9,612 bases of DNA from a virus (Duplodnaviria; Heunggongvirae; Uroviricota; Caudoviricetes): the IMG/VR virus record IMGVR_UViG_2636416140_000002. The stretch is one strand, 5' to 3'. Position numbers and translations under genes: made by a program. The notes under the pieces are model-generated. The model ran no database searches. It saw nothing but the letters and a program-made list of their open reading frames with translations, and had not been told where the DNA came from. Below are positions 1,683-6,542 of the stretch, piece by piece. How positions within the stretch are numbered: position 1 is the stretch's first letter; the number at the start of each line of letters is the position of its first letter.

Positions 1683-1694
1683 GGGGTGGGGACG

Positions 1695-1967
1695 ATGGTA
1701 CATGACCGCATAGCGGAAGAACTGGAGGCGAAAGGCTTTTACCGGAGAGCGTCGGCGCGATGGGGTGAAGTCATGCAACTGGTGGAGACAGACAAGGAAC
1801 GGCATCACATCACGATGCGACGGCTGGAATGTTCCAGGAAGGCACAGAGGCCACCGGAGCCGCCGGATAATTACGGAGACCTGAAAAAGGCGGTCGATCG
1901 CACTTATGCCGAAATGGGTATGGATGGTGCTGGTGATGAAATATGGCGAAATTACCAGGACAGATAA
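1695..1967 (+). CDS. Small putative transcriptional regulator, possibly PerC-like (ORF track start GTG 1686; ATG 1695 preferred)
   Basis: N-terminus MVHDRIAEELEAKGFYRRASARWGEVM resembles, from memory, PerC-family small activators; not verified by search. GAGG upstream of ATG 1695. Followed by a strong terminator. Confidence 0.5.
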   Translation: MVHDRIAEELEAKGFYRRASARWGEVMQLVETDKERHHITMRRLECSRKAQRPPEPPDNYGDLKKAVDRTYAEMGMDGAGDEIWRNYQDR

Positions 1968-1973
1968 TCACAC

Positions 1974-1998
1974 AGCCGGAGCAATCCGGCTTTTTGTC
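1974..1998 (+). terminator. Rho-independent terminator
   Basis: Stem AGCCGGA (1974-1980), loop GCAA, stem TCCGGCT (1985-1991), followed by a T-run (TTTTTGT). Confidence 0.75.
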
Positions 1999-2013
1999 AT
2001 GTTTTGTAAATTA

Positions 2014-2040
2014 TTTGTTCGTGGTTGTTCCACGTTGTTC
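2014..2040 (+). promoter_or_regulatory. Three TTGTTC hexamers at exact 10-bp phase (2015, 2025, 2035) upstream of the capsid operon; candidate regulator binding site or promoter element
   Basis: Read directly. The 15-mer TTGTTCCACGTTGTT (2025-2039) recurs exactly at 9392-9406. A possible weak -10 (TATTTT, 2057-2062) lies 16 bp downstream of the last hexamer. Confidence 0.45.
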
Positions 2041-2115
2041 GCTGACCGGATCGGCATATTTTACCCGACCTGAATCATGATTATTCTCGCCCGTGGTGCC
2101 AGGACGCTGGGGCCA

Positions 2116-2165
2116 TTTTCCCGCCTGTTAATGTGCTCGCCAATATTCATTACCAGGCGGGAAAA
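2116..2165 (+). promoter_or_regulatory. Perfect 12-bp inverted repeat TTTTCCCGCCTG / CAGGCGGGAAAA with 26-nt spacer in the capsid operon leader
   Basis: Arms at 2116-2127 and 2154-2165 are exact reverse complements. A 36-codon uORF (2077-2187) without SD spans both arms. Confidence 0.4.
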
Positions 2166-2255
2166 CGATCGGTGCGATTACTGATTTCCTTATGAAAAAC
2201 GGTTGAGTGTTTGCCGCGTCCTGGAGTTCCTTACTTAACCCCAGGACTTTTTTTT

Positions 2256-3413
2256 ATGCCGAGAATAATCGAATTACGCCAGCAGAAAACCGCCATTAAA
2301 AATCAGATGCGCGACATGCTGGAGAACGCGGAAAAAGAAAACCGCAGCCTTAACGATGCAGAGGGCGCAAAATTTGACGAATTACGCGCTAAAGCTGAAT
2401 CCCTCGATAAAGACATTTCCCGCCTTGAAGCCATTGCAGACGAAGAGCGCAGCAAGCCAGGTAAAAGCAGTCAGACCACTGACCCCGCAGAACTCCGCAA
2501 CTACATTCTGACAGGTGAAACCCGCGCATTAAGTACAGGCGTTCCCGCTGATGGTGGTTATACCGTTATCCCTGAACTGAACACCGAAATCATGCGAATG
2601 CTGGCGGATGAATCCACCATGCGCCGCATCTGTACCGTGAAGAAAATCAGCAGCAACGAGTTTAAGCAGCTTGTTTCCGCTGGCGGTGCGACCGTTAACC
2701 ACGGTGAAGAGGGTAAGGCACGCGAACAGACCAGCACCCCGCAGATTAACGAGGTGAGCATCAAGCTGTATCCGGTCTATGCGTACCCGCGCACCACACA
2801 GGAAATCGTGGATTTTTCCGATGTGGACATCCTTTCATGGCTGACGGGTGAGATTGGCGACACCTTCACGGAAACCGAAGAAAGCGATCTGGTTGTGGGC
2901 GACGGTGACAAAAAAGCAAAAGGTTTTTTATCCGTACCCCGTGCAGAGAAGAACGACAAAGAGCGTGATTTTGGTACGTTGCAGGTAATTAAACCTTCCG
3001 AATCTCTGGCGTGGACATCTGCGGACCCGCTGATCGACCTGAAATTTGCATTACGTAAAAAATACCGCAAAAACGCGGTCTGGGTGGTTAACTCCACGAC
3101 GGCGGCAAAACTTCAGAAGGTGAAGAACGCGAACGGTGATTATATCTGGCGCGACCGTTTACAGGCGGGTGATCCTGATACGTTGCTGGGCCTTCCGGTC
3201 GAATATCTGGAGTTTATGCCTGATAACGTTATTGCCCTGGGTGACTTCAAACGCGGTTACTACATTGTTGATCACGAAACAGGTGTTCGCACCAGACCGG
3301 ACAACCTGACAGAACCAGGATTCATCAAAATTTTCACGCAAAAATATTTAGGCGGTGGCGTGGTGGATTCGAACGCGATCAAGATTCTGGAACTGCCGGA
3401 AGACGACGATTAA
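2256..3413 (+). CDS. Phage major capsid protein, HK97 family, with N-terminal scaffolding (delta) domain
   Basis: 385 aa from ATG 2256 (ORF track starts at TTG 2211). Coiled-coil-like N-terminus (ELRQQKTAIKNQMRDMLENAEKENRSLNDAE...) followed by an HK97-fold-like body; AGGA 10 nt upstream of ATG. Confidence 0.92.
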   Translation: MPRIIELRQQKTAIKNQMRDMLENAEKENRSLNDAEGAKFDELRAKAESLDKDISRLEAIADEERSKPGKSSQTTDPAELRNYILTGETRALSTGVPADGGYTVIPELNTEIMRMLADESTMRRICTVKKISSNEFKQLVSAGGATVNHGEEGKAREQTSTPQINEVSIKLYPVYAYPRTTQEIVDFSDVDILSWLTGEIGDTFTETEESDLVVGDGDKKAKGFLSVPRAEKNDKERDFGTLQVIKPSESLAWTSADPLIDLKFALRKKYRKNAVWVVNSTTAAKLQKVKNANGDYIWRDRLQAGDPDTLLGLPVEYLEFMPDNVIALGDFKRGYYIVDHETGVRTRPDNLTEPGFIKIFTQKYLGGGVVDSNAIKILELPEDDD

Positions 3414-4026: not shown

Positions 4027-5238
4027 ATGTGGCCTTTCAGAAGAAAAAAAGAGCAGCGCAGCATGACGCTTGATGAGTTTATGGCGCTGGCTGGCACATC
4101 GAACACGGGGGCGGGTGAGTACGTATCATCGGGGACAGCGGAATCACTGCCCGCCGTCATGAACGCCGTCACGGTCATCTCTGAGGCGGTGGCTACCATG
4201 CCGTGTTACCTGTACCTGGTACGCAATGAGAAGGGGAAGGAGGCCCGAGAGTGGCTTGATTCTCATCCGGTCGATCACATCCTCAACGAGCGCCCGAACG
4301 CGTGGCAGACTCCCTACCAGTTTAAGCGAATGATGATCCGCCACTGCCTGTTAAACGGTAATGCTTATGCGGTGATTCAGTGGGGGCGTGATGGTTTTCC
4401 GGTGGCTTTACATCCTTACCCGCCGCAGTCGGTGAACGTGGAGCAGACAGGCGAACACAACTGGCGCTACTGCATCACTGACGCCTACACCGGAAACACC
4501 CGCAACTATTTACCGTGGGAGGTTCTCCACCTTCGTTACTCCACGGATGACGGTTTTATGGGGCGCTCACCTGTAACCATCTGCCGCGAATCGCTGGGGC
4601 TTGGGCTGGCCCAACAACGCCACGGCGCGAGCGTGATGCGTGATGGCATGATGGCGGCAGGGGTTATCACGTCAGGCGAATGGCTGGACGGCGTGAAGGG
4701 CAAACAGGCATTAGCCGCACTGGAACGCTACAAAGGGGCCAGAAACGCCGGAAAAACGCCCATCCTTGAAGGGGGTATGAGCTATCAGCAGCTGGGCATG
4801 AGTAATCAGGATGCTGAATGGCTGGCCTCCCGTCGCTTCACCATTGAAGACATCGCCCGAATGTTCAACGTCTCGCCGATTTTTTTGCAGGAATACAGCA
4901 ACAGCACCTACAGCAATTTCAGCGAGGCAAGCCGCGCATTTCTCACCATGACGATGCGCCCGTGGCTGGCGAACTTTGAGCAGCAGATAAAAAACGCCCT
5001 GCTGGTGGCCTCGCCTGTACCTGGTATCCGGTATCAGGTGGAGTTTGACAGCGCGGACCTGTTACGGGCCACACCAGGCGAACGCTTTGCCACCTATGAA
5101 CGCGGCATCAAATCCGGCGTTATGTGCCCGAACGAAGCCCGCGAACGTGAAGGGCTGTCCCCGCGTGATGGTGGTGATGAGTTCAGCCAGGCATGGAAAC
5201 AGGAAGTAAAAATCAGCGAGGGAGAAAAACCGGAATGA
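4027..5238 (+). CDS. Phage portal protein, HK97 family
   Basis: 403 aa. Start is 1 nt after the protease stop, with a GGGGG SD. Central and C-terminal regions look like HK97-type portals; acidic C-terminal tail. Alternative start ATG 4063. Confidence 0.92.
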   Translation: MWPFRRKKEQRSMTLDEFMALAGTSNTGAGEYVSSGTAESLPAVMNAVTVISEAVATMPCYLYLVRNEKGKEAREWLDSHPVDHILNERPNAWQTPYQFKRMMIRHCLLNGNAYAVIQWGRDGFPVALHPYPPQSVNVEQTGEHNWRYCITDAYTGNTRNYLPWEVLHLRYSTDDGFMGRSPVTICRESLGLGLAQQRHGASVMRDGMMAAGVITSGEWLDGVKGKQALAALERYKGARNAGKTPILEGGMSYQQLGMSNQDAEWLASRRFTIEDIARMFNVSPIFLQEYSNSTYSNFSEASRAFLTMTMRPWLANFEQQIKNALLVASPVPGIRYQVEFDSADLLRATPGERFATYERGIKSGVMCPNEAREREGLSPRDGGDEFSQAWKQEVKISEGEKPE

Positions 5239-5573: not shown

Positions 5574-5866
5574 CAGAAGAACTTATCACCCTGGAAGAAG
5601 TGAAACTCCATTGCCGCATCGATGGCGACGAGGAAGACCAGTTAATCAGCGGATACATTGCCGCATCGCTTGAGGCGTGCCAGATACATATAGGCAGGCG
5701 CTTTGATGACGGGCTGGAGTTCACGCCAGCCATAAAGATTGGCTGCATGATGTTTATCGCTCACCTGTACGAGAATCGCCAGCTGGTAGCGGATAACGCA
5801 AAAACGCGCGTACCCATGACGATTGGCGCGCTCTGGACGGCTTACCGTGATGTGGGGGTGTACTGA
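5570..5866 (+). CDS. gp6-like head-tail connector protein
   Basis: ATGA overlap with the upstream gene. N-terminus ITLEEVKLHCRIDGDEEDQLISGYIAASLEACQ is characteristic of gp6-like connector / DNA-packaging proteins. Confidence 0.82.
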   Translation: MTEELITLEEVKLHCRIDGDEEDQLISGYIAASLEACQIHIGRRFDDGLEFTPAIKIGCMMFIAHLYENRQLVADNAKTRVPMTIGALWTAYRDVGVY

Positions 5867-6306
5867 TGCCGTGGCAACCATTAAGACGATGCACAGAACC
5901 AGGCTGTAACAGGCGCGTGAAGTCCGGCAAGTGTGAGGAGCACAGGCGGGCGGCATGGCGTGCAGAGGATGCCAGACGAGGACACCGCCGCGCGCGTGGG
6001 TACTCCAGACAGTGGGACAAATACCGCGCCATGTATCTGAGTAAAAACCCGTTATGCGTGCGATGCCTTGAGAAGGGGATATATACGCCCGCCGTGGTGG
6101 TGGATCACATTATCCCGATTAATGGCGGTGATGATGTTCTCTTCTGGCCCGAATGGAACCATCAACCATTGTGCCAGGCGTGTCATAACCAGAAAACGAA
6201 ATGGCTTGATCCGGCAACAAAAAGCAAGCGTGCCGCAGGTGGATTTCATGAAGAGGAAGAACGGGCCGCTAACCGCAATAACTGGATGTATGACGCTGAT
6301 GAATGA
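5866..6306 (+). CDS. HNH endonuclease (packaging-associated, adjacent to terminase)
   Basis: Cys-rich N-terminus (C..PGC...GKCEEH) and HNH core (VVDHIIPINGGDD...NHQPLCQACHNQKT). TGATG overlap with the connector gene. Position just upstream of terS is typical of cos-type HK97-like systems. Confidence 0.9.
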   Translation: MPWQPLRRCTEPGCNRRVKSGKCEEHRRAAWRAEDARRGHRRARGYSRQWDKYRAMYLSKNPLCVRCLEKGIYTPAVVVDHIIPINGGDDVLFWPEWNHQPLCQACHNQKTKWLDPATKSKRAAGGFHEEEERAANRNNWMYDADE

Positions 6307-6472: not shown

Positions 6473-6542
6473 TGAGGCTGTATGACGGGGTGGGGGGCGT
6501 TTTCAGGACAAACCCGACCCCGCCTACCTGGATGACATCGCC

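Follow-up and report, generated by a model that had tools for sequence, protein, structure and literature searches.

The window (the whole stretch of DNA analysed, 9,612 nt) carries genes for SSB, PerC, an HK97-type capsid protein, prohead protease, portal, head-closure and connector proteins, HNH, a P27-type TerS and TerL, as identified by Pfam, and represents the part of an EcCIEDL933-type capsid-forming PICI (cf-PICI) of E. coli that runs from replication to packaging. The heads of capsid-forming PICIs are made by the islands themselves, and only the tails come from helper phages. Islands of this type are recognized by int, alpA, primase/rep and packaging genes, by the lack of tail and lysis genes and by a size of ~15 kb; the assignment of the window is based on its Pfam gene set, on an identical annotated locus of ~15 kb, and on the published family description. 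In particular, the leader of the capsid gene is 100% identical to that of E. coli UCPROB-002, as is the capsid start, and the UCPROB-002 island, which is ~15 kb long and located in tqsA, contains int, a gene for a 62-aa AlpA-like HTH protein, icd-like genes, primase, ssb, perC, and the packaging genes. The cf-PICI EcCIEDL933 resembles the UCPROB-002 island and the window in its gene set and gene order, its size, and its alpA-dependent biology (bioRxiv 10.1101/2022.09.08.507074). A G-rich segment, GACGGGGTGGGGGGCGTTTTCAGGACAAACCCGACCCCGCC, found at positions 6484-6525 between the HNH and terS genes and present in related islands too, is likely the cos region of the HNH-dependent packaging system.

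The features of the region between the PerC-family gene and the capsid gene are collected in the table below. PerC was considered as a dedicated regulator of the leader and rejected, as a PerC homologue lies 5' of the leader only in the lineage of the window and in the L164 type; elsewhere the upstream neighbour of the leader is variable cargo, often divergently oriented.

Features of the capsid operon leader and adjoining genes; positions are those of the window
Feature	Position	Strand	Evidence
PerC-family gene, directly 5' of the capsid leader	1686-1967		PF06069, E = 3e-43
Intrinsic terminator after the PerC-family gene	1974..1996 (stem 1974-1991, T-run)	+	terminator scan
Conserved box TTTTGTAAATTAT	2002..2014	+	5' edge of the conserved packaging module
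Three TTGTTC(G/C) repeats, 10-bp phased, at 2015, 2025, and 2035	2015..2041	+	between the box and -35
Predicted sigma-70-type promoter	-35 TTTACC 2060-2065, 16-nt spacer, -10 TATTCT 2082-2087	+	leader conservation
uORF, 35 aa, judged not functional	2077..2184	+	ORF list, leader comparison, promoter position
P1, bipartite 5' hairpin, GUGGU-G-CCAG-GACG-CUGG-G-GCCAU	2093..2116	+	folds; covariation
P2, long helix (the inverted repeat)	2116..2165	+	repeat finder, fold, covariation
Small hairpin, 8 pairs (three G-U), E. coli lineage only	2167..2186	+	MFE folds
3' strand of the anti-P3 helix, GCGUCCUGG	2216..2224	+	9-nt perfect complementarity to 2099-2107; RNAalifold
P3 hairpin, GUCCUGGAGUU/AACCCCAGGAC	2218-2228 / 2237-2247, then U8 2248-2255	+	repeat finder, folds
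Major capsid protein gene, HK97-type, first of the packaging operon	2256..3413	+	PF05065, E = 1.6e-61; RefSeq

An earlier note on this DNA had drawn attention to a 12-bp perfect inverted repeat about 90 nt upstream of the capsid start. Both sequence reading and the repeat finder recovered it, as TTTTCCCGCCTG (2116-2127) complementary to CAGGCGGGAAAA (2154-2165) across a 26-nt spacer, and the end of its 3' arm is 91 nt from the capsid ATG (2256). The G+C content of the arms is 7/12, and the pairing can be extended to 18-nt arms (2116-2133 and 2148-2165) with one mismatch and a 14-nt loop. No other perfect inverted repeat in the window reaches 12 bp with 40 nt or less between its arms. Dinucleotide shuffles have 0.033 such repeats on average (6 of 300 contained any), and the 12-mer of the arm, with at most one mismatch, occurs in the window at these two sites only (0.09 expected). 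Chance is an unlikely origin for the repeat. As RNA it forms the stable stem-loop that had been anticipated, segment 2110-2170 folding with an energy of -24.2 kcal/mol (z = -3.9 versus shuffles). Of the checks that the note had proposed, folding of the leader 2060-2255 gives -68.7 kcal/mol (z = -4.65), and covariation of the two arms in homologues, described below, is strongly positive. Its suggestion of a regulatory RNA, acting by attenuation or antitermination, stands in part. A stem-loop does lie in the leader of the capsid operon, where an attenuation-like role is plausible; the repeat itself is neither a terminator nor an antiterminator, because no U-run follows it. It is succeeded by CGAUCGG, has a loop of 14-26 nt, and was not called by the terminator scan. 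The hairpins that are candidates for switching, P1 and P3, flank the repeat, and neither had been mentioned.

Capsid-based searches of genomes, viral contigs, and metagenomes yielded ~200 loci and 80 whole islands. In ~200 related islands one RNA element is found directly 5' of the major capsid gene, on the coding strand, once per island. The covariance model R1 gave one match per locus, always on the plus strand and ending at the capsid AUG, in 65 of 96 sources of a first set, 80 of 82 of a second, and all 56 of a third, made up of whole islands; its place and strand with respect to the capsid gene are constant in all 201. Two main lineages of leaders share one architecture, P1, P2, linker, and P3. 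Group A comprises the window type and its relative L060/L164 (69% capsid identity), and scores only ~42 bits with R1 because its 3' half is diverged and misaligned. Group B comprises the islands of Citrobacter, Rosenbergiella, and Erwinia, many islands of E. coli, and islands from gut metagenomes, and has a pyrimidine-rich linker after P2. Of 5426 complete E. coli genomes, 431 carry the window-type leader and 172 a second leader type of the same family, the element heading the capsid operon in ~600 of them; it is also found in related islands of Shigella, Citrobacter, Erwinia, Rosenbergiella, and gut and other metagenomes. The inverted repeat forms the middle helix of a leader RNA family that is new and widespread among capsid-forming satellites.

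The Rfam 15 scan of the window leader and one group-B leader gave chance-level matches only (at most 19 bits, far below the gathering scores). We did not find the element described in the literature on cf-PICI regulation, PerC, AlpA/antitermination, or RNAs 5' of capsid genes, and the literature searched contains neither the P1 nor the P2 sequence; the element could be among the more than 10,000 unnamed viral RNA candidates of one catalogue (PMC10690425). No promoter, terminator, or RNA element is described for the packaging operon in the cf-PICI papers examined (bioRxiv 10.1101/2022.09.08.507074).

The element is missing from some capsid homologues, and other or much shorter leaders are found, among others, in the Gilliamella loci and in a short-leader group. 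Capsid homologues with other leaders are L084, L085, L087, L092, L093, and L096 (for these six, the position listed is ~120 nt 5' of the capsid ATG), L089, L094, L095, and L157, and L006/L061/L101/L107/L121/L128. They have a TGTAAAT-type box (absent or degenerate in L096) and a terminator-like hairpin, and their leaders are either unstructured and 45 nt long or of a different long type with an internal terminator-like hairpin of its own. Leader types appear to be exchangeable modules.

The first hairpin, P1, has a predicted energy of -14.3 kcal/mol on its own, and its GACG loop (2103-2106) is invariant or replaced by the variants GGCG and GAUG, which still pair by wobble. The group-B counterpart GUGGCACUCAGACGUGAGCCGCCAC is almost invariant; compensatory changes are observed in 6 of the 10 pairs of P1. 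P2 begins 0-3 nt 3' of P1, and its arms are unrelated among leaders with near-identical P1 and P3, as in GGCCGUUUAAUC, GUCCACCCGG, GGCCGUCAGG, and GCCGCCUGAC, and similarly in AGCCGUUUAAUG, GCCCGCCCCG, GGCAGCUUACUC, and UUCCCGCCUG, with at least eight unrelated stem sequences in all. The apical part of P2 varies from an 11-nt loop up to a three-way junction of ~45 nt.

In the MAFFT alignment of 30 diverse leaders, 89.7% of cells are paired and 20 of 35 pairs have changed on both sides, and the covariation score of the observed alignment was reached by none of 500 shuffles. When the partners were slid, pairing in this alignment fell to 34-45% of cells; overall, 32-46% of cells pair with slid partners, as compared to 90-93% with the true ones. 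The model-based alignment of 51 distinct sequences contains changes on both sides in 8 of the 10 basal pairs of P2, with 93% of cells paired overall; for instance, pair 36-90 is CG in 24 sequences and UA in 23, pair 38-88 is UA in 23, AU in 13, CG in 7, and UG in 7, and pair 39-87 is GC in 28 and AU in 21. There are 76 G-U cells on the plus strand versus 21 on the minus strand. The common P2 variant within E. coli is a C-to-U change producing a U-G pair; two disruptive variants are also seen in E. coli, each in one or two of the fetched loci only. Compensatory changes were thus found as for a conserved structured cis-regulatory RNA (5' UTR element). On this comparative evidence P2 is an RNA helix and no dyad operator, since its sequence and loop length differ among islands, yet the pairing and the compensatory changes persist.

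A small hairpin is predicted after P2 in the E. coli lineage. Its sequence AACGATCGGTGCGATTACTG (2164-2183) is 80-85% similar to GGTGTAGTCAC repeats that are located in both island ends (L001, 4525-4544 and 19532-19551), a likeness that may be due to chance.

The last hairpin, P3 (-14.1 kcal/mol), buries the AGGA Shine-Dalgarno sequence (2243-2246) with an unpaired probability of 0.00. The purine-rich Shine-Dalgarno region lies in the 3' arm of P3, 9 nt before the AUG, and natural variants of P3 either retain the pairing via G-U or gain an A-U pair. A tract of 7-8 U residues follows P3 in group A and none in group B, so in group A the folded P3, together with the U tract that runs up to the capsid AUG, has the look of an intrinsic terminator; a simple terminator scan made no call at P3 because of an internal A-C mismatch. 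The T-run at 2248-2255 is polymorphic, T7 being found in most related E. coli loci and T8 in the window and some others, which alters both the spacing of the Shine-Dalgarno sequence from the AUG and how long the terminator tail is. The non-E. coli lineage has a weak Shine-Dalgarno sequence (GGA/GAG) and a P3 that lacks the U tract.

Within the linker of the window, segment 2188-2207, CCUUAUGAAAAACGGUUGA, resembles the group-B capsid start CUCCAUGAAGAAA, and the covariance model aligned the two. The segment contains a mini-ORF of four codons (MKNG*) and looks like a relic of an ancestral capsid start; as such, it would imply that the group-A leader has gained ~60 extra nt including the terminator-like P3.

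Upstream of P1, a pattern TTTAC-16-TAT..T is conserved in a fixed register in 110 non-redundant leaders, its last T being 6 nt before the first G of P1. This places the predicted transcription start at ~2094, within the first bases of P1. The copy in the window matches the promoter consensus at 8 of 12 positions and is under the threshold of the promoter scan; the homologous site of L072, TTTACA-16-TATGTT, was called. A promoter of its own is needed by the operon because the upstream gene is variable and often divergent, and many group-B islands have a terminator-like hairpin whose end falls precisely at the -35 hexamer.

Further upstream, TTGTAA, and with it the TTTTGTAAATTAT box, keeps a fixed distance of 98-99 nt to the GACG loop in 123 of the 157 unique leaders, despite the differing intervening sequence, and the genes 5' of the box, which marks the edge of the module, are variable and often divergent. 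The reverse complement of the box reads TTTACA, and was scored as the -35 hexamer of a divergent promoter in L108. The phased repeats between the box and the -35 hexamer have relatives elsewhere in the island: besides its place 5' of the capsid promoter, a 10-bp-phased TTGT(T/G)(T/C)(C/G) motif is present in the full island L001 at each of the two island ends, in the interval from int to alpA (there inverted), and immediately 5' of alpA (the sites in L001 being 4489-4509, 5864-5894 (inverted), 6114-6130 (inverted), 12056-12082, and 19496-19522). The copies at the island ends are inside a 76-nt direct repeat that is 75% identical. These repeats are candidate sites for a DNA-binding protein of the island, possibly an activator, and their distribution suggests that one protein (AlpA/RDF-like or the integrase) might bind at the att arms, the alpA promoter, and the capsid promoter; if so, excision, alpA autoregulation, and transcription of the capsid operon would be linked. 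A k-mer search for further copies of the promoter-proximal repeats in group-B islands gave too noisy a signal.

The upstream ORF that had been reported across both arms of the repeat exists, with its ATG at 2077 and its stop at 2184, but its role as a functional element did not hold up. The ATG is inside the spacer of the predicted -35/-10 hexamers and thus 5' of the predicted start, it has no Shine-Dalgarno sequence, and the ORF is not conserved. Among 100 group-B leaders, 53 have a 10-codon ORF as its counterpart, 22 have none, and in ~24 it is shifted; the length of equivalent ORFs ranges from 8 to 54 codons across leaders with no conservation of the peptide sequence, and within group A the uORF shows non-synonymous changes and, in two loci, a frameshift. 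We conclude that the uORF is incidental. An 11-nt perfect complementarity between 2079-2089, at the uORF start, and 2260-2270, within capsid codons 2-5, was set aside, since the 5' strand is upstream of the predicted transcription start and natural variants break the pairing; if it has any relevance, this is probably confined to read-through transcripts.

The leader contains a second set of complementary strands. The segment 2099-2107, CCAGGACGC, which covers the inner 5' strand of P1, the loop, and one further nucleotide, has a perfectly complementary partner that overlaps the 5' arm of P3. In group B the counterpart is formed by the loop and the 3' strand of P1, AGACGUGAGCCGC, which pairs with GCGCUGGUUUCACGUCU on the 5' side of P3. 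The tetranucleotide CGUC, the complement of the GACG loop, is also invariant and is located ~110 nt 3' of it. Given the alignment alone with no structure supplied, RNAalifold predicted P2 and this long-range helix, rather than P1 and P3. The double complementarity is conserved: the long-range helix is 97-99% paired and mostly invariant, and two of its pairs have compensatory changes, corresponding to ~3 lineage events. In particular, group-B leaders have U in alignment column 17, group-A leaders C, and the L167/L179 lineage G, and both partners of this column, column 12 in P1 and column 155 in the long-range helix, are A, G, and C, respectively. Similarly, column 19 covaries with column 10 (P1) and column 153 (long-range helix) over three lineages. 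Covariation of one strand with two partners is a signature of a two-state RNA, and a two-state switch is a likely, though not proven, interpretation of these alignments. The energies of the long-range duplex are only ~2 sd better than those of shuffled partners.

The two folds differ in predicted stability. In the window, the combination of P1, P2, and P3 has an energy of -65.9 kcal/mol versus -57.1 kcal/mol when the long-range helix is enforced, and in the group-B leader L108 the values are -57.5 and -51.2 kcal/mol; the unpaired probability of the Shine-Dalgarno region is ~0 in both leaders. As the default fold is 6-9 kcal/mol more stable, a switch would need an effector (or kinetic trapping). 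No candidate for an effector was found, and whole islands contained neither a second copy of P1 nor an antisense partner.

The best explanation, to which we assign a probability of about 0.6, is that the capsid operon has a structured leader in which P2 serves as a clamp, and which acts as a default-OFF switch over capsid expression. The mRNA of the operon would start with a structured 5' untranslated leader of ~160 nt (~2094-2255). Its more stable default fold, P1+P2+P3, would be the OFF state, with access of the ribosome blocked and, in the E. coli type, with transcription terminating 9 nt before the AUG. In the alternative fold the P1 loop and one adjoining strand would re-pair with the 5' side of P3, excluding both P1 and P3, and P2, enclosed by the long-range helix, would clamp the two strands of that helix together. 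This fold would be the ON state, in which the ribosome-binding site is freed and the terminator removed, and we infer that the refolding could be driven by a factor made after induction by the helper phage. A clamp function of P2 would explain the requirement for a helix with free sequence, and also the near-constancy of P1 and P3, on each of which two pairings act. The ON/OFF assignment is uncertain in the non-E. coli lineage, where the freed 5' strand of P1 could also pair beside the AUG.

A more specific version of the default-OFF switch, which we put forward tentatively and consider rather doubtful, is a new class of riboregulator that licenses the production of satellite capsids. The helper-induced factor, a protein or an RNA encoded by the helper or by the island, would bind the P1 hairpin or its 5' strand and flip the leader to the long-range helix, so that the whole packaging operon would be translated and, in E. 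coli islands, also read through.

Among the alternatives, the one that survives best is a static leader with no switch, in which P1 and P2 protect the long capsid-terminase mRNA from decay that depends on its 5' end, or P2 is an RNase III processing site, and P3 damps translation. With the predicted start on its first bases, P1 would indeed stand at the 5' terminus of the RNA. The length of P2 (12-18 bp) and its free choice of sequence would suit a helix with a structural role or one recognized by a nuclease, and the default fold is much the more stable. What such a leader leaves unexplained is the invariance of both the GACG loop and the CGUC ~110 nt away, the covariation of P1 bases with two partners, and the full burial of the ribosome-binding site of the most abundant virion protein; for these reasons we hold it to be unlikely.

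The two abutting 5' stem-loops of a long operon, with a terminator-like hairpin after them in the E. coli lineage, could also be taken as a put-like cis antitermination element in which P1 and P2, transcribed right after the start, modify RNA polymerase and let it pass P3 and the terminators beyond. The comparison of R1 with the HK022 immunity region (putL, putR), run with filters off, gave a best score of 2.6 bits (E = 3.2), and no sequence resemblance to HK022 put is seen; moreover, most lineages lack the U tract after P3, and a conserved P3 would be pointless under a factor-independent antiterminator, which leaves this reading a slim chance. The AlpA protein of P. aeruginosa is a Q-like antiterminator whose functional residues extend to position 142 (PMC9371919). 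The island AlpA is an unlikely candidate for such a role as judged on size only, having 62 aa against more than 140 aa in P. aeruginosa.

We give similarly little credence to a separate gene for a trans-acting sRNA of ~160 nt (~2094-2255) in the E. coli lineage, which would leave the capsid gene to be expressed from read-through or upstream transcripts. A promoter-like site, a strong structure, and a 3' end that resembles a terminator and carries a U7-8 tail do recall the shape of an Hfq-type sRNA, but the larger lineage shares P1, P2, and P3 and lacks the U tract, the element is joined to the capsid start in every case, with one copy per island, and a second complementary target was not found in the island.

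The earlier note had also allowed for a dyad operator. Action of the repeat as DNA, either as an operator or as a cruciform for a dimeric regulator of the late operon, would fit the perfect 12-bp dyad symmetry near a promoter. It is very improbable because homologues retain the pairing and not the sequence: the half-sites differ in otherwise near-identical leaders, the spacer ranges from 11 to ~45 nt, compensatory changes and G-U wobble, the latter in favor of plus-strand RNA, preserve the helix, and the repeat is 3' of the predicted start. If an operator exists, the phased TTGTTC repeats upstream are the better candidates for it. Finally, attenuation by a leader peptide, in which translation of the 35-codon uORF over P1 and P2 decides whether P3 forms, is hardly credible. 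The uORF does span both hairpins, and 53 of the 100 group-B leaders have an ATG equally far from P1, but the ATG of the uORF lies between the -35 and -10 hexamers with no Shine-Dalgarno sequence, and the ORF is absent, shifted, variable in length, or frameshifted, with no conserved peptide.

We found no description in the cf-PICI papers examined of how the expression of capsid, HNH, and terminase is timed or restrained. If the leader is a default-OFF switch, it marks the point at which induction is converted into particle production, provides a handle for the engineering of cf-PICI-based delivery particles, and offers a natural case of a strand covarying with two partners. The licensing version, if true, would make it the first control point after initiation to be described in cf-PICIs, and a portable RNA switch responsive to the helper. 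Even if it were a stabilizer only, it would still represent a new and well-supported RNA family missed by annotation pipelines.

Several known systems resemble parts of this leader. Processing by RNase III or stabilization by a 5' hairpin is known in the early RNAs of T7, the lambda N leader, and ompA-type stabilizers, which share with it a long helix of free sequence, a 5'-terminal hairpin, and a long polycistronic message; unlike the capsid leader, they have no need for a conserved complementarity between the loop of the 5' hairpin and the hairpin at the ribosome-binding site. The put sites of HK022 are likewise a pair of neighbouring stem-loops close to the 5' end of a transcript from a phage-type operon, located 5' of terminators, whereas the leader described here ends in a hairpin that occludes the ribosome-binding site, and most of its members lack a downstream U tract. 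The closest functional analogues are the expression platforms of riboswitches and attenuators. The capsid leader differs from them in having no known aptamer, leader peptide, tRNA, or protein partner and no Rfam match, and resembles them in its location in a 5' UTR, in alternative pairings that share one strand, and in a last hairpin placed over the Shine-Dalgarno sequence and followed, in the E. coli lineage, by a U tract.
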